From: a phage
Length of the DNA stretch: 64,000 bases
Reading direction: 5' to 3' (one strand)
Assembly: GCA_022897995.1 (NCBI GenBank)
Contig: GCA_022897995.1_4763.1
Shown piece after piece: positions 10,583 through 51,340 of the stretch. Within the stretch, counting starts at the first letter, position 1. Every line of letters starts with the position of its first letter. The notes under the pieces were generated by a model. It was given only the letters and a program-made list of their open reading frames with translations, did not search any database and had not been told where the DNA came from. The position numbers and the translations under genes are program-made.

Positions 10583-11383
10583 ATGAAAAACATTATCGCT
10601 GCTATCGTTCTTTCTGCTACTGCTTTCGGTGCTAATGCTGCGTCCTTTGATTGCGCTAAAGCTACTACCAAATCAGAGAAGTTTATTTGTGCTAATGAGT
10701 CAATCTCCGCACTGGATTCGAAACTTCATGAAGTATATGTTAAAGCTGTTAAGATTGATCCGTCTCTGAAACAAGAGCAACGCAACTGGAATAAAACTGT
10801 TCGTGATACAATGATCAATATCGGGCAGATTCAGCCACTGGAGGCTGTATATAACGCTCAAATCCAAAACTTGATGAATGTATTACCTAAAGAAGAAACC
10901 TCGTCAGAAAGCGATTCAGAGACTTCTGTGAAGGTTGAAGAAGAACAACCGAAACAGGAAGAAAAAGTGGTGGAAGAACAGAAGAAAGAAGAAAAAATCT
11001 CTGGATCTATCACTTACCAGTGCATTGCAAAATTTACATGGAAAATCATTGATGGTATTGAAACAGACAGCCGCAAAGATCCATTGTATGGAAACTCTAC
11101 TTATGGCAACAAGGGCGGAAAGCTGAAAATGACCATGACCGAAGGTGAATTGTCTTCTTTCGTATATGTTGATGAGCGCGAAGTGTTTAAATCAAATCTG
11201 ACACGCAGCAAACAATATAAAAATATGGTTGTTGGTATGAGCAAACCGGATGTAGCAGGATACTTCAACGAGTACAAAATGTGGGTAGGGGAAAACGATG
11301 AAATCCGCTTTGAAGTCATCGAGAAAGGTCGCATTAGCTATGATTATGGTACTCAATATGTTTGCGAATATAAGAAGGGTTAA
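10583..11383 (+). CDS. secreted or periplasmic protein with N-terminal signal peptide
   Basis: MKNIIAAIVLSATAFGANA-AS signal-peptide-like start; Lys/Glu-rich linker; ATG 10583 follows the promoter and GAGGAATATATT. Confidence 0.5.
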   Translation: MKNIIAAIVLSATAFGANAASFDCAKATTKSEKFICANESISALDSKLHEVYVKAVKIDPSLKQEQRNWNKTVRDTMINIGQIQPLEAVYNAQIQNLMNVLPKEETSSESDSETSVKVEEEQPKQEEKVVEEQKKEEKISGSITYQCIAKFTWKIIDGIETDSRKDPLYGNSTYGNKGGKLKMTMTEGELSSFVYVDEREVFKSNLTRSKQYKNMVVGMSKPDVAGYFNEYKMWVGENDEIRFEVIEKGRISYDYGTQYVCEYKKG

Positions 11384-11665
11384 ATGATGAAATTTAACAA
11401 CATGAAGTTTAAAAAAGATTGGTGGGATGCTATGAGAGCTAACGACCGAATCGGAATTGGAAAGGCAGAAAAGACAGTTGTTATTGTCAAGTATAAAGCG
11501 ACGCAAGATCTTTTGATTAAGGAACTCATTCGAGCGGGTAACTATCAAACACCGGAAGGTCTTATTGACATGATGGTTGATAACATGTATAGTGACGAAC
11601 CACCAAACATTAAACAATATTACAAGCAGTATTACCGAAAGTGGCAGAAGTATAACCGAAAATAG
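11384..11665 (+). CDS. hypothetical basic protein
   Basis: 93 aa ORF coupled to the upstream stop. Confidence 0.45.
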   Translation: MMKFNNMKFKKDWWDAMRANDRIGIGKAEKTVVIVKYKATQDLLIKELIRAGNYQTPEGLIDMMVDNMYSDEPPNIKQYYKQYYRKWQKYNRK

Positions 11666-41076: not shown

Positions 41077-41583
41077 ATGTTGTCACAGACTTACATGCAG
41101 ATCGCCTATCTGATCGCAAAGAACTCTAAATGTGTTTCGTGGAAGGTAGGCGCACTAATTGAAAAAGACGGGCGAATCATTTCTACTGGATTTAATGGCA
41201 CTCCAGCAGGGCAAGTAAATTGTAGCTGTCATGCACATAAAAGCGGTTGGCTGGATGATGAAGGCAAAATGATCCCTGAAAAGCGACCGGAGCATAGCGC
41301 ATGGTCACAGAAAAACGAGATCCACGCTGAATTAAATGCTATTTTGTTTGCTGCCCGTAGCGGTGTATCGATTGAAGGCGCTAGTATGTGGTGTACTGCT
41401 TCACCGTGTCCAGATTGCGCTAAAGCAATTGCAAACAGTGGAATTAAACATCTATACTATTGCGATACATACGACCGAAATGGTGGGCGTGATTGGGCTG
41501 ATATTTTGGATAAAGCCGACATTACGGTTACGCGTATTCCAAAAGCCTTATTGACTGATTTGAAGGGTATTGATAATGACTGA
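41077..41583 (+). CDS. cd: dCMP deaminase
   Basis: Zinc-binding HAE ... PCxxC deaminase motifs (HAELNAIL, SPCPDCAKAI); 168 aa. Confidence 0.85.
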   Translation: MLSQTYMQIAYLIAKNSKCVSWKVGALIEKDGRIISTGFNGTPAGQVNCSCHAHKSGWLDDEGKMIPEKRPEHSAWSQKNEIHAELNAILFAARSGVSIEGASMWCTASPCPDCAKAIANSGIKHLYYCDTYDRNGGRDWADILDKADITVTRIPKALLTDLKGIDND

Positions 41584-41890
41584 ACAAATTGATAATATCG
41601 CACTTCGTGAAGCACTCAAGAAAATGTTTTCGGTCGGTACTCACTCTTTGCAGTTTACTAAGAAAGATGGTACTGTCCGCGAGATGATCGCCACGCGAGA
41701 TCCGGCACTGATGCCGTTTGAAACATACGAAAAGTGGTTAGTTCCGAATGTTGAAAAACCGCGTAAAGAATCAGAAACATCTTTGCCAGTATATGAAATT
41801 GCGGTTGAAGGTTTTCGTAGCTTCGGGCTTGATAGTCTGATTCATGTAGACGGGCGGACTCCAGCGCAGATCATCGAAATTTATAAATAA
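41570..41890 (+). CDS. hypothetical protein
   Basis: 106 aa ORF overlapping the cd stop. Confidence 0.4.
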   Translation: MIMTEQIDNIALREALKKMFSVGTHSLQFTKKDGTVREMIATRDPALMPFETYEKWLVPNVEKPRKESETSLPVYEIAVEGFRSFGLDSLIHVDGRTPAQIIEIYK

Positions 41891-41931
41891 TTCATCATTA
41901 AACTGTATTGATTTGAAGAGGTAATAAAATT

Positions 41932-42255
41932 ATGACCGTTAAAACTCCTAAAGCACTTGGTGACTATGTGATCATTGAAGCTAAAGCAGAAAGCGCAGGG
42001 ACCGAAGTTAAAAGCTCTATGGGTATCATTATTGAGCAAAAGCGCACTATGGGCGAGATTCCGCTGGTAGGTAAGATTATTGATATTGGTGAAACTGTAG
42101 ATAAAGAATTGCTGGGTAAAATTGTTCTACTGCCACATGGCAAGATGAATAAAGTTCCTCATCCAGACGTTATTAACGGCGTTAAGAAGGAAGAAGAGAT
42201 CGACCTGAAATGGACTGTAACGCACAAACAGAATATTGTGGTAGTTTACGGTTAA
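41932..42255 (+). CDS. 31: GroES-like co-chaperonin for capsid folding
   Basis: 107 aa (T4 gp31 about 111 aa); conserved VPHP segment; position between cd and ligase. Confidence 0.7.
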   Translation: MTVKTPKALGDYVIIEAKAESAGTEVKSSMGIIIEQKRTMGEIPLVGKIIDIGETVDKELLGKIVLLPHGKMNKVPHPDVINGVKKEEEIDLKWTVTHKQNIVVVYG

Positions 42256-42269
42256 TGATTTTAAACGGC

Positions 42270-42295
42270 GGGAAATAATCCCGCCTATATTTTGG
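42270..42295 (+). terminator. rho-independent terminator
   Basis: GGCGGGAaataaTCCCGCC hairpin followed by TATATTTTGG. Confidence 0.5.
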
Positions 42296-42337: not shown

Positions 42338-42502
42338 ATGAAAACTATGAATGTAAACATCCACGAAATCCATACCGAAGTATTCACCGAAGAAGACCAG
42401 TTTGGTGTATGGGTAAATCCTCATTCGATTACTATCGATATTCCTCATGACGATTATGATCCGTTCTCTCTGATTAGCGAGATTAGTTTCAATGACTTCT
42501 GA
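42338..42502 (+). CDS. hypothetical small acidic protein
   Basis: 54 aa ORF after SD GGAATTTTATT; overlaps the next gene start. Confidence 0.35.
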   Translation: MKTMNVNIHEIHTEVFTEEDQFGVWVNPHSITIDIPHDDYDPFSLISEISFNDF

Positions 42503-42971
42503 AATTGATATCTATGCGGGTGGACCTTATCCATCGGGTGAATTGAGCAACTTCAATAAAAGACCATTCCGTCTATTTGGTTGCGATATTAACAGCACAG
42601 AAGGATTTTTACAGGGATTAAGATTCAAGAATCCAGAAAAGCAAAGAGAAATCTTTTTGATGCACGGTGGCAAAGCAAAAAGAACCGGAAGAACTGAAAA
42701 GATTGAGAATCACATGCTATATTTTCAGGGTCGCCCGATTCATCGAATGAGTGAGCATTATTACAGACTGGTACATCTGGCATTTGTTACGATGGCACGG
42801 AATAACCCAGAATTTTGTAAAGCATTACTCGCTACCGGAAATAAGAAATTACGTCATAGCATAGGTGGAACTGATCCGTTAAAGACTATATTGACCGAAT
42901 CAGAATTTTGTAGTATCCTCAATGATATTCGTGAACGTTTAACAAAACGAGGTGAAAATGTCAATTCTTAA
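42492..42971 (+). CDS. NADAR-like (YbiA/DUF1768) domain protein
   Basis: Pattern LSNF...PF...G......EhxxQxxKF and ALLATG resembles the YbiA/NADAR family; 159 aa. Confidence 0.45.
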   Translation: MTSEIDIYAGGPYPSGELSNFNKRPFRLFGCDINSTEGFLQGLRFKNPEKQREIFLMHGGKAKRTGRTEKIENHMLYFQGRPIHRMSEHYYRLVHLAFVTMARNNPEFCKALLATGNKKLRHSIGGTDPLKTILTESEFCSILNDIRERLTKRGENVNS

Positions 42972-44454
42972 TATCATTAACCAGCTTGCAGCAACAGACA
43001 AAACATCGCTGAAAGAAAAGATTCTGAAAGAATCTGCAAGCAATGAAACGCTGAAAGAATGCTTTTATCTGGCATATTGCAAACAGGTTACGTTTGGCGT
43101 AAAGAAATACGATAAACCATCGCGCTATTCGTCTGTATTGTCTTTATCCGGTGCATTACAAGTCTTTAAAAATAAACTTGCCACGCGTCAAGTAACTGGT
43201 AATGCTGCATTACAGCTAGTTACCGATACTCTGACTTGCTTGTCAGAAGACGATGCTAAAGTTGCAATGATGGTATTGAATCGAGACCTAGAATGCGGTT
43301 GTTCCGCTACCACCGCAAACAAGGTATGGAAGAAACTGATCCCCCAGCAACCATGCCACCTTGCATCGTCATATTCTGATAAGGCTATTGCTAATATCAA
43401 ATATCCGGCGTATGCACAGCTTAAAAGCGATGGCGCTCGTGGTATGGCTGATATTGACGGGGAAACATTAGCAATCTATACCCGTTCAGGTAATATCTAT
43501 CAGGGACTTGATGATTTGTTTTCTGTTTTAGAGCGTCTACGAGGCCGTGGAATTGTTCTAGATGGCGAATTGGTATATATGCCTACCCTTTCGCAAACAC
43601 CAGCGCAGAACTTCGTTGAGAGCGTTTATGATGGTACTCTGTCATGGATATTTGAAGAAGAGGAAATGCCATTAACGCCAGTAGCGGAAGCAGTGAAAGA
43701 ATCCGTTGTTGCAGATCGTCAGACCGGAAATGGTATCCTCAACAAATCACTGAAAGGAACTATTCCAAAAGAAGAAGCCCAATGTATTGTTTACACTGTC
43801 TGGGATGTTATCGACCGTGATGTGTATTACGGAAACGAGAAAGCAACGAAGCAATATAAAGATCGATTCGAAGAACTAAAACAGATTGTTGAAGAACTTA
43901 ACGATCCTCGTGTGCAGATAATCGAAAATACTGTAGTTAACAATATCGATGAAGCTCGCGAAGTATATCATCGCTATGTAAACATGGGCTTAGAAGGTAT
44001 TATCCTTAAAAATTTACATGGTGTATTTGAAGATCGTCGCAGTAAAGATCAGGTTAAATTTAAAGAAGTGATTGACTTCGACGCGGAAATTGTTGATGTA
44101 TATCCGCATAGTAAAGATCCTAATAAGGTAGGCGGTTTTACTGTCCGTAGTGCGTGCGGACGAATGATGACTAACACCGGGTCGGGATTGACAGACACCA
44201 CAACCGAAAAAGGTGATGATGGTATCGAACGTGTGATTCCGTTAGATCGTCGAAATGAACTCGACCGAGAAATGTTATGGGCTGACCGTCATAACCTGAT
44301 TGGAAAAGTCATTGAGATGACATGCAACGGGTATATCCGCAGCAAATCACGTAAAGAAGATGAACCGGAGTTCTCTTTATTTCTCCCGATCATCAAACGT
44401 ATTCGCTACGACAAGACCACTGCAAATACAGTAAAAGAGGTATTCGATGTGTGA
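42952..44454 (+). CDS. 30: ATP-dependent DNA ligase
   Basis: 500 aa (T4 ligase about 487 aa); adenylation motif KSDG (AQLKSDGARG). Confidence 0.9.
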   Translation: MKMSILNIINQLAATDKTSLKEKILKESASNETLKECFYLAYCKQVTFGVKKYDKPSRYSSVLSLSGALQVFKNKLATRQVTGNAALQLVTDTLTCLSEDDAKVAMMVLNRDLECGCSATTANKVWKKLIPQQPCHLASSYSDKAIANIKYPAYAQLKSDGARGMADIDGETLAIYTRSGNIYQGLDDLFSVLERLRGRGIVLDGELVYMPTLSQTPAQNFVESVYDGTLSWIFEEEEMPLTPVAEAVKESVVADRQTGNGILNKSLKGTIPKEEAQCIVYTVWDVIDRDVYYGNEKATKQYKDRFEELKQIVEELNDPRVQIIENTVVNNIDEAREVYHRYVNMGLEGIILKNLHGVFEDRRSKDQVKFKEVIDFDAEIVDVYPHSKDPNKVGGFTVRSACGRMMTNTGSGLTDTTTEKGDDGIERVIPLDRRNELDREMLWADRHNLIGKVIEMTCNGYIRSKSRKEDEPEFSLFLPIIKRIRYDKTTANTVKEVFDV

Positions 44455-44923
44455 TAATGAAGGGGCGAAAGCCCCTAAACCTAAAAAATTGTCAAAGAAA
44501 GAGCAACGCCAGATCCTGAAAATGAAATACGGTGGACGTTGTGCCTATTGTGGCGAGGAACTAGGGGATCGCTGGCACGCAGACCACATCAAACCAGTAT
44601 TGCGACGCTCAAAAGTAGTCTATGATGAAAATGGACGAATTGCCCGTAATGATGATGGATCGTGGAAGTATAAGGTTGTAGGAATGCATAAACCGGAGCA
44701 CGATATACTTGATAACATGAATCCGGCTTGTGTGCAATGCAATCTTTACAAAAGCTGTATGGGCTTAGAATACTGGCGTAAGTGTATACGCGAGAACTTC
44801 CAGAAGTACATTCAACGTAACATGGGATTACGTGCGGCTAAACGCTTTGGCTTGCTTTCAATCCACGATCAACCAGTAGAATTTTATTTCGAAAAGTACG
44901 AGCGCGAGCATCAAGAAAAATAA
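44447..44923 (+). CDS. HNH endonuclease (possible free-standing homing endonuclease)
   Basis: CAYCG...HADHIKP...N...CVQCNLYK His-Me finger motif; a GGGGCGAAAGCCCC hairpin lies in the first codons, so the true start may be the internal ATG near 44522. Confidence 0.55.
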   Translation: MCDNEGAKAPKPKKLSKKEQRQILKMKYGGRCAYCGEELGDRWHADHIKPVLRRSKVVYDENGRIARNDDGSWKYKVVGMHKPEHDILDNMNPACVQCNLYKSCMGLEYWRKCIRENFQKYIQRNMGLRAAKRFGLLSIHDQPVEFYFEKYEREHQEK

Positions 44924-44937
44924 TTCAAAAAAAGTTG

Positions 44938-44996
44938 TTGACAGGGGATCACCGATCCCCTATACTACACACATACCGAAACGAACTAGGAGAATC
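44938..44996 (+). promoter_or_regulatory. sigma70-like promoter with stem-loop in the spacer
   Basis: TTGACA 44938-44943, spacer GGGGATCACCGATCCCC (perfect palindrome), TATACT 44961-44966; leader CACATACCGAAACGAACTAGGAGAATCA. Confidence 0.65.
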
Positions 44997-47182: not shown

Positions 47183-47511
47183 TGAGATTGTTTAAGTATT
47201 CTCTAACGTCAAATTACGATAAACAAGGTCATTGCATCCGTTGCCCTAATTGCCATAGCCATAACATTGAAAGCAAGATCACCGATCATATTGATGGACT
47301 TTGGTCGCCAGCAAGCGAGATAGAATACTATTGCGCTGATTGTGGAATTGTAGTAGCATATTGGGCATACGGATCATATGATCCTTACTTCCAGATGGGA
47401 GAGCGTTCAATCCCTGCTCTTATCTGGAGAATTAAGAACAATATCCGGCATTCATGGGATGAGTTCTTAAAAGATATTGATTTACGTGATGATCCATTCA
47501 GGAGACTATAA
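47182..47511 (+). CDS. zinc-ribbon protein
   Basis: CIRCPNCHSH ... YYCADCG; TAATG overlap with the upstream methyltransferase-like gene. Confidence 0.4.
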   Translation: MRLFKYSLTSNYDKQGHCIRCPNCHSHNIESKITDHIDGLWSPASEIEYYCADCGIVVAYWAYGSYDPYFQMGERSIPALIWRIKNNIRHSWDEFLKDIDLRDDPFRRL

Positions 47512-48028
47512 CATGAACAGATTAACGCCTAAACGCCGTTACTATACCAATACTAAAAACTTTGTCATCTCTGTTTATGAGGCGTGGTTAGAAGATGGAT
47601 ATATCAACATGAACCCAGATTATCAGCGTCCTTTAGTATGGGACACCGAAAACAAACGTATGTTTATCGAAAACCTGATTAATGATTTTCCGGTTGGTGC
47701 TATCGCAATGGCTAAGATTGATGATGGCTCTCGCTATGAGATCGAAATCGTGGACGGTAAACAGCGTTTAAACGCAATATTCTCTTTCATGAAGGATGAG
47801 TTTAGCATTGCTGGTAATGATGATTCTATGCTGTATTACAGCGATTTTACGCCAGCAGAAAAGCGACGTTTCCGAAATCTCGGACTACCAGCGATCATGA
47901 TGGAAGAGAGCACACGAGAAGACCGATTAGAGTATTTCTACAAAACAAACTTTTTCGGTGTGCCTCAATCGGAAGAACATCGCCAGCACGTAATTGCCCT
48001 ATTGCAAGATGAGCAATTAAAAAAATAA
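47477..48028 (+). CDS. DUF262 (ParB/GmrS-N-like) domain protein
   Basis: DYQRPLVW and IVDGKQRLNAI motifs as in DUF262 (DYQR...W, DGQQR); 183 aa stand-alone; overlaps the upstream ORF. Confidence 0.45.
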   Translation: MIYVMIHSGDYNMNRLTPKRRYYTNTKNFVISVYEAWLEDGYINMNPDYQRPLVWDTENKRMFIENLINDFPVGAIAMAKIDDGSRYEIEIVDGKQRLNAIFSFMKDEFSIAGNDDSMLYYSDFTPAEKRRFRNLGLPAIMMEESTREDRLEYFYKTNFFGVPQSEEHRQHVIALLQDEQLKK

Positions 48029-50515: not shown

Positions 50516-51340
50516 ATGTTCAAACAATTACAGGATTTTCGTCTTTCAGAAGAATCACGCGAATCAATGATGGAACGTATGGATAATTACATAGAAACAT
50601 ATGGCATTGAGGGGATTAATGGTTACATGATCACTGAGATGATCAGCGATCAGATTAATTTTGATGATTATGTGAAGATTATCCGCTTCCTTGAGCGTGA
50701 GACACAAGATTATGGATTTGTCAAGAAAATCATTAATGTGATGTATGAAGTACACTCCGAAGATTTTGGAGATAATGTATTCAAACATTACAAACATAAC
50801 AACATAACCCCAGCAGAATATAATGCAATCTGTGATTATGTGTCTGAACAATACGAATGGGTAAATGGTGCTCTCTTAGGGGAAGAAGACATGACCGACG
50901 AGATATCAGAAATTGTTGATTTGATGGATTGTGTCATGGATAAAACCGAAAAGTTAAACGGTACTCTTTATCGCGGTCAACATCTTGACATTCAGACAAT
51001 AGAGCGTATTATTGAAGATAAGGAATTTACCTTTAAAAACTTTGTGTCAACCAGCATGACACCAATCATCTTTGGAGGCTGGCTTTCAAATAGCACTAGC
51101 CTTTATTGTGAGAATCGATATGAATCCATGACCGGAAAGATGCAACATTCTTGTAATGTATCATGGGTAATTGACGTAAAAGATCATAAAGGTTTTGTTG
51201 TTGGATCAATTGCATGGAATCCTTGCGAATGTGAAGTAATTTTACCGCGCGGGACTTGCATAAAGGTAAACGACGTAGTAGAATCCTTCGGCGATGAGAA
51301 TCGTAGACAATTTACAATTTTCGGTGAGGTGACTAAATGA
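50516..51340 (+). CDS. second ADP-ribosyltransferase, Alt-domain paralog
   Basis: LYRGQ, FKNFVSTSMTPIIFGGW and ECEVILPRG closely mirror the Alt catalytic motifs; 274 aa. Confidence 0.6.
   Translation: MFKQLQDFRLSEESRESMMERMDNYIETYGIEGINGYMITEMISDQINFDDYVKIIRFLERETQDYGFVKKIINVMYEVHSEDFGDNVFKHYKHNNITPAEYNAICDYVSEQYEWVNGALLGEEDMTDEISEIVDLMDCVMDKTEKLNGTLYRGQHLDIQTIERIIEDKEFTFKNFVSTSMTPIIFGGWLSNSTSLYCENRYESMTGKMQHSCNVSWVIDVKDHKGFVVGSIAWNPCECEVILPRGTCIKVNDVVESFGDENRRQFTIFGEVTK

Follow-up and report, generated by a model that had tools for sequence, protein, structure and literature searches.

The window analysed was a stretch of 64,000 nt of phage DNA. The gene under study, called adfN here on the grounds given below, was found on the plus strand in a chain of overlapping genes, together with a small ORF of 54 aa, the DNA ligase gene and an HNH endonuclease gene (Table 1). 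The initial annotation had placed a 159-aa reading frame here, overlapping the ligase gene, and this was exact: the frame runs from ATG to TAA, and the overlap is 14 nt. The ligase start used for this overlap is the one annotated in the records of phages ECD7, Brandy, Sf20 and kaaroe. The upstream GTG at 42952, taken as the ligase start in a mechanical ORF listing, gave an overlap of 20 nt. At the other end of adfN, its start was overlapped by the 3' end of the 54-aa ORF by 11 nt. Translation may be coupled through both overlaps, from the 54-aa ORF to adfN and from adfN to the ligase.

Table 1. Features of the adfN locus and the downstream ADP-ribosyltransferase genes, in window coordinates
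Feature	Position	Strand	Basis or remark
Terminator-like hairpin 3' of gene 31, upstream edge of the small ORF/adfN/ligase/HNH block	42267..42285	+	
Krischvirus-specific 54-aa ORF	42338..42502	+	phrog_15277, E 6.4e-42; first gene of the block
adfN (gp30.3 orthologue) CDS, phage-clade NADAR, 159 aa	42492..42971	+	ATG 42492 to TAA 42971
Helix-1 active-site motif E37-GFL-Q41-GL-R44-F45	42600..42626	+	Pairwise alignment; profile alignment to 2b3w and 8bau
Codon AGA for R44, natural Lys-to-Arg at the residue coordinating ADP-ribose phosphate/adenine	42621..42623	+	Sequence
Codon CAT for H122, last-strand histidine, marker of the phage NADAR clade	42855..42857	+	Family alignment; model strand 119-121
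C-terminal alpha-helix, residues 136-157, predicted intact	42897..42962	+	DSSP on the model; alignment reaches the T4 C-terminus
Overlap of adfN stop and ligase ATG 42958, 14 nt	42958..42971	+	Sequence; ligase start in related records
ATP-dependent DNA ligase (gene 30), directly 3' of adfN	42958..44454	+	PF01068, phrog_114
HNH endonuclease	44447-44923	+	PF01844; phrog_2118, E 7.9e-55
Alt, full-length, 683 aa	48386-50437	+	PF03496
Alt-like paralogue, 274 aa, essentially the ART domain alone	50516-51340	+	PF03496, 58.6 bits

The hairpin at the upstream edge of the block is annotated as a putative terminator in the record of phage G2248. A strong promoter-like site was seen at 44938, after the block; the number of sites in the promoter scan was not above that in shuffled controls. 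T4 30.3 contains an alternative-frame internal ORF, 30.3'. Nothing similar of 40 aa or more was present on the plus strand of adfN (42492-42971); the mechanical listing gave only two ORFs inside the gene, both on the minus strand and 48-52 aa long.

The gene order (pseT, cd, 31.1, 31, small ORFs, 30.3, 30 ... alt) was that of T4. T4 30.1 and 30.2 gave no tblastn match within the window, and the absence of these two genes, and also of 30.4, explains why adfN lies directly against the ligase gene and overlaps it. The 54-aa ORF was in the same position in all seven of the annotated Krischvirus records examined. It was compared with T4 gp30.4 as the possible counterpart of a conserved partner; the two sequences were not similar, and this assignment was rejected. 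The other T4 anti-DarT factors, AdfA/61.2 and AdfM/tk.4, had no homologue within the window, the rest of the phage genome lying outside it.

Several other features of the neighborhood were recorded. The last 8 nt of the ligase gene also belong to the HNH endonuclease gene, whose place is taken by alt.1 in T4. A gp31.1 homologue (41570-41890, plus strand) carried a WYL_2/Sm-like SH3 domain (PF10902, 38.7 bits). Phage ECD7 has an HNH homing endonuclease gene (ECD7 10793-11404) inserted between 31.1 and 31. No such gene was present at 41890-41932 of the window, where about 40 nt separate 31.1 and 31. The mobile endonuclease is polymorphic, being present in one and absent from the other of two near-identical phages. 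Between the ligase and alt, a 183-aa protein (47477-48028, plus strand) with a GmrSD N-terminal (DUF262) domain (PF03235, 72.9 bits) was matched by PADLOC to NsnA (E 1.3e-20) and PD-T4-2_A (E 5.5e-12). It is a homologue, or a fragment, of type IV restriction or defence nucleases that is carried by the phage.

The best Pfam match of the adfN product was PF08010, 'Bacteriophage protein GP30.3', with 135.4 bits (cut-off 36; E 1.5e-39), and the alignment covered positions 2-138 of the 138 in the profile. The product also matched phrog_652, which is of unknown function in PHROGs (E 1.7e-45). T4 gp30.3 and the window protein aligned over their full length (residues 3-150 versus 2-152) with 39% identity (E 5e-31). 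A homologue was found in 1510 phage records. The 2.6-kb region around adfN was 97-98% identical to about 60 Krischvirus (RB49/ECD7-type) genomes, and by its sequence the window phage belongs to Krischvirus, as an RB49/ECD7-type T-even-like coliphage. The protein itself was 100% identical to the ECD7 copy and 98% identical to the RB49 copy. In nearly all of the annotated Krischvirus records examined it is a 'hypothetical protein', in some with the note 'gp30.3'; the record of Shigella phage Sf20 notes the orthologue as 'NAD and ADP-ribose NADAR superfamily'.

Judged from the PF08010 match, the identity to gp30.3 and the 31-30-alt neighborhood, the gene is the Krischvirus orthologue of T4 gp30.3, and it almost certainly belongs to the gp30.3/AdfN family. 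The profile matches, the number of records and the dN/dS ratios given below showed that it is not a chance ORF.

The initial annotation had proposed a search with the general NADAR profile PF08719. No match was obtained: the score was 16.3 bits against a gathering score of 35.1 (E 0.012), below the threshold. PADLOC gave no match to the adfN protein. The NCBIfam model NF053876, 'NADAR family anti-phage protein', gave 14.4 bits against 240, and membership in that family was ruled out by this score. On the other hand, a profile built from 88 diverse members of the gp30.3 family matched YbiA by sequence (E 3.6e-4), and in the profile alignment to 2b3w and 8bau the Glu and Lys columns of the family aligned with the Glu and Lys of YbiA and PnNADAR. 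Membership in the NADAR superfamily is therefore supported by the predicted fold and the family-specific profile, and not by PF08719.

Among metagenomic proteins, gp30.3-type NADAR domains were seen in tandem, with N, A or Q replacing the catalytic Glu in one of the copies. Other proteins joined the domain to BspA-type LRRs (LRR_5) or a calcineurin-like metallophosphatase. In a form that recurred, about 470 aa long, the domain followed an N-terminal region of about 310 aa with no Pfam match. These arrangements (LRR_5, metallophosphatase, tandem copies and unannotated N-termini) gave no functional lead.

An AlphaFold2 model was built from an alignment of 12 sequences (pLDDT 94.2, pTM 0.89). In a Foldseek search of the PDB with this model, the best match was E. 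coli YbiA (2b3w; E 2.3e-6, TM 0.65) and the second was the Phytophthora NADAR in complex with ADP-ribose (8bau; E 6.5e-4). Only these two matches were significant, both are NADARs, and all others had E > 3. These structures are among those that Johannesman et al. reported for T4 AdfN (PMC11257639). The model thus predicts a core-only YbiA/NADAR fold. The YbiA/NADAR-like character that had been proposed for the protein was upheld by this fold and by the PF08010 match. The proposal was to be given up if a NADAR profile match was missing and the fold was also unrelated to YbiA; it was kept because the predicted fold was YbiA-like.

With YbiA as the best structural match, the protein might be read as a YbiA-like metabolic N-glycosidase, for example one that detoxifies an intermediate of the riboflavin pathway, with no part in defence evasion. 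We consider this extremely improbable. The last-strand Glu that defines YbiA is a His in the window protein, and the protein falls in the phage gp30.3 clade, for the T4 member of which a role against DarTG1 has been demonstrated.

The motifs on which the initial annotation had based its reading were largely found. LSNF (residues 18-21), PF (25-26) and ALLATG (111-116) were literally present, and the pattern EhxxQxxKF was not, the sequence at this place being EGFLQGLRF. In this helix-1 motif (E37-G-F-L-Q41-G-L-R44-F45), an Arg stands at the NADAR Lys position, and a Lys (K46) follows two residues later. By sequence and profile alignments, which were used for the equivalence of E37, R44 and H122, E37 corresponds to T4 E36, PnNADAR E43 and C7 E88, and R44 to T4 K43, PnNADAR K50 and C7 NADAR K95. 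The positive charge is kept at the R44 position.

Conservation was counted over 167 aligned stretches of the family, drawn from 1.8 billion representative proteins. E37 was invariant in one alignment of the family, and Glu stood at its position in 161 of the 167 stretches; Gln was found at the Q41 position in 154 and His at the H122 position (context KKLRHSIGG) in 158. In the R44 column, 152 stretches had Lys, 9 had Arg and 4 had some other residue. All eight Krischvirus orthologues had R44, and all eight copies were 159 aa long. The nearest metagenomic relative (69% identity) also had Arg, and the next (62%) had Lys. The members that retain E37 and H122 included at least three distinct lineages with Arg here, and the nearest neighbors of these lineages have Lys.

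Between the ECD7-type and RB49-type subclades, only 3-4 non-synonymous differences were found against 12-19 synonymous ones (dN/dS 0.04-0.08, about 0.05; eight orthologues). This pattern indicates that the protein is under strong purifying selection in Krischvirus.

The effect of substitutions at this Lys has been reported for two enzymes. In the E. coli C7 NADAR, which is of the DarG1 type, K95R kept hydrolysis in vitro and lost the rescue from DarT1 in vivo (PMC11543638). In T4 AdfN, partial rescue by K43A was still seen in the final paper of Johannesman et al. (PMC11825919). The efficiency of the Arg44 enzyme in vivo could be lower, as C7 K95R hydrolyzes in vitro without rescuing in vivo. 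The published mutagenesis being ambiguous, Arg44 was treated as a tolerated natural variant, presumably a minor active-site substitution.

The same observations may be taken to mean that the Arg44 protein is attenuated or re-tuned. It would keep the NADAR fold and bind ADP-ribosylated nucleic acid while being a poor DarT1 antagonist, and would act on another toxin that ADP-ribosylates guanine or other bases, or need a Krischvirus-specific partner. The change of K to R at a conserved position, the behavior of C7 K95R (PMC11543638) and the already unexplained context dependence of T4 AdfN (PMC11825919) are in keeping with this. Against it, Krischvirus has R44 throughout, under strong purifying selection, Arg recurs independently in intact members that keep E37 and H122, the remaining active-site and fold features are all conserved, and T4 K43A itself gave partial rescue. 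We regard attenuation as unlikely. About equally unlikely is that the Lys-to-Arg change, being fixed, selected and recurrent, is not neutral and marks a functional sub-type of phage NADARs with altered kinetics or substrate range. Such a sub-type could, for example, be tuned to a DarT1 variant or another base-ADP-ribosylating toxin, or no longer need a T-even co-factor.

The activity expected of a gp30.3 orthologue has been described in recent papers. Schuller et al. (2023) reported that NADARs hydrolyze the guanine-N2-ADP-ribose made by DarT1 (PMC11543638). In a 2024 paper in Toxins, the T4 phage NADAR was active in vitro on G-ADPr and gave uninfected cells no rescue from DarT1 (PMC11125620). 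Johannesman et al. (Nat Commun 2025) mapped the DarTG1 resistance of T4 and T2 to gene 30.3, which was renamed adfN for anti-DarT factor NADAR and is required for T4 growth on DarTG1 hosts (PMC11825919). In an independent transposon screen, T4 30.3 was essential only on DarTG1 hosts and dispensable otherwise. T4 gp30.3 is on record in several sources as a guanine-specific DNA ADP-ribosylglycohydrolase and as the counter-defence of T4 against DarT1 (PMC11825919, PMC11125620, PMC11543638, bioRxiv 10.1101/2025.11.20.689424).

T4 AdfN strips ADP-ribose off DNA, and this is impaired by E36A and K43A (PMC11825919). It does not bind DarT1 and is inactive against the thymidine-modifying DarTG2 (PMC11825919). 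A version ending at the stop of RB69, where a frameshift removes the last helix, was less active (PMC11257639, PMC11825919). It works fully only in T-even infection, a context dependence that is unexplained (PMC11825919).

RB49 DNA has unmodified cytosine (PMC4041780). An hmC-specific AdfN, as suggested by the preprint (PMC11257639), would have been a paradox in a phage with unmodified cytosine (PMC4041780). This point was dropped, since the protection by AdfN persists in T4-GT7, whose DNA is wholly unmodified (PMC11825919).

Taken together with these reports, the gene probably acts as a counter-defence against DarTG1 in its phage. The orthology, the fold, the conservation of E37, Q41 and H122, the intact C-terminal helix and the purifying selection were observed here. 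The glycohydrolase chemistry and the DarTG1 phenotype come from publications on the T4 enzyme, and the Arg44 enzyme of the window phage would be expected to perform the same reaction efficiently in vivo. An anti-defence role against a DNA-ADP-ribosylating toxin had been put forward in the initial annotation, and the orthology to T4 gp30.3/AdfN lends it support. Points against this role are the Arg at the T4 K43 position, the sub-threshold PF08719 score (16.3 vs 35.1 bits) and the limitation of the full function of T4 AdfN to T-even infection (PMC11825919). No report on Krischvirus and DarTG1 was found in the searchable literature.

In the proposed mechanism, the AdfN orthologue would be a minimal, core-only NADAR ADP-ribosylglycohydrolase, made early from the overlapping gene block of the ligase. 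In a host with the DarTG1 toxin-antitoxin system, infection would release DarT1, which would put ADP-ribose on the N2 amino group of guanine in phage DNA and so block replication. AdfN would then cleave the guanine-ADP-ribose bond and restore replicable DNA. It would be an orphan antitoxin, acting on the product of the toxin with no binding to the toxin. E37 and H122 are expected on either side of the distal ribose in the active site, and the diphosphate and the adenine would be held by R44, at whose position almost all relatives have a Lys.

The main substrate in vivo could also be RNA, with guanosine ADP-ribose being removed from phage or host RNA hit by RNA-targeting toxins. The T4 phage NADAR does hydrolyze guanosine-ADPr on RNA in vitro, but it is markedly less active there than the C7 NADAR (PMC11833690). 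The family has only one known in vivo phenotype, directed at the DNA-modifying DarT1, and a guanosine-RNA ART defence of E. coli is not named in the NADAR literature examined. This makes RNA a very unlikely main substrate. Phage NADARs are not listed among the enzymes that reverse cytidine-ADPr.

The initial annotation had also pointed to two ADP-ribosyltransferases about 6 kb downstream as possible partners. Both are present (Table 1), on the same strand and 5.4-8.4 kb downstream; at the corresponding place T4 has the degenerate duplicates alt.-1 and alt.-2. Nothing supported a cooperation with these Alt-type enzymes, in which AdfN would erase or edit their modifications. They lie near adfN through synteny inherited from the T4 gene order (30.3 ... 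30, alt) and not as a specific pairing, and the annotated targets of Alt are proteins (RNA polymerase alpha and others). Alt modifies arginine side chains. The NADAR substrates reported in the papers examined are all nucleobases (PMC12945103, PMC11833690), and phosphate-linked ADPr was not cleaved by NADARs. T4 30.3 is, moreover, dispensable without DarTG1. A functional link between adfN and the Alt enzymes is accordingly not supported, and we give it almost no credence.

The family, the fold, the chemistry and the biological role were published in 2023-2025, and the exact protein is in public databases; none of these is new. For the phages, the DarTG1 counter-defence reading would mean that RB49-type (Krischvirus) coliphages carry AdfN. 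Its carriage would then help to predict how these phages fare on E. coli and Shigella hosts that bear DarTG1, a matter of host range that bears, for instance, on phage therapy cocktails. Most GenBank records that were examined carry the label 'hypothetical protein', which merits correction.

The place of the protein among known NADARs was considered last. The phage NADAR clade, the 'gp30.3 proteins' of De Souza and Aravind, is defined, as cited in two papers, by a last-strand His; this residue is Glu in YbiA-type and Asp in BC4488/DarG1-type NADARs (PMC11125620, PMC11543638). With E. coli YbiA (2b3w) and the Phytophthora NADAR (8bau) the window protein shared just 18-22% identity, and its PF08719 score was sub-threshold. 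It has His122 for the defining Glu of the YbiA type, and its biological context is different. By this residue it would not be a YbiA-type NADAR.

[quoted passage not shown] The last-strand catalytic residue is His122 and not Asp, Arg stands for the C7 K95 equivalent, and the N-terminal extension that forms an electropositive DNA channel is missing (159 aa versus 219 aa). The gene is also not beside a DarT toxin gene, its neighbors being the small ORF and the ligase gene, and is thus an orphan. Without the Asp, the extension and an adjacent darT1, the protein is not of the DarG1/BC4488 type.

AdfN-Bas32 and AdfN-Bas60, from T5-like and Vequintavirinae phages, were acquired independently; like the window protein they are encoded by phages as orphans, and they counter DarTG1 (PMC11825919). 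Both fall in other branches of the NADARs and neutralize DarT1 even in uninfected cells, whereas the window protein lies in the T4-superfamily gp30.3 clade.

T4 gp30.3 itself differs from the window protein in having K43 for Arg44 and in lacking 7 residues found at the C-terminus of the latter. In its surroundings, the window adfN abuts the ligase gene, without 30.2, 30.1 or the internal 30.3' ORF, and the small ORF before it bears no relation to T4 30.4. Unlike that of T4, the DNA of the window phage has unmodified cytosine (PMC4041780). On the other hand, the two proteins are orthologous, 39% identical and share a core-only NADAR fold of about 150 aa. They have the same Glu, Gln and last-strand His and an intact C-terminal helix, and their genes occupy the same early-gene location between gene 31 and gene 30.
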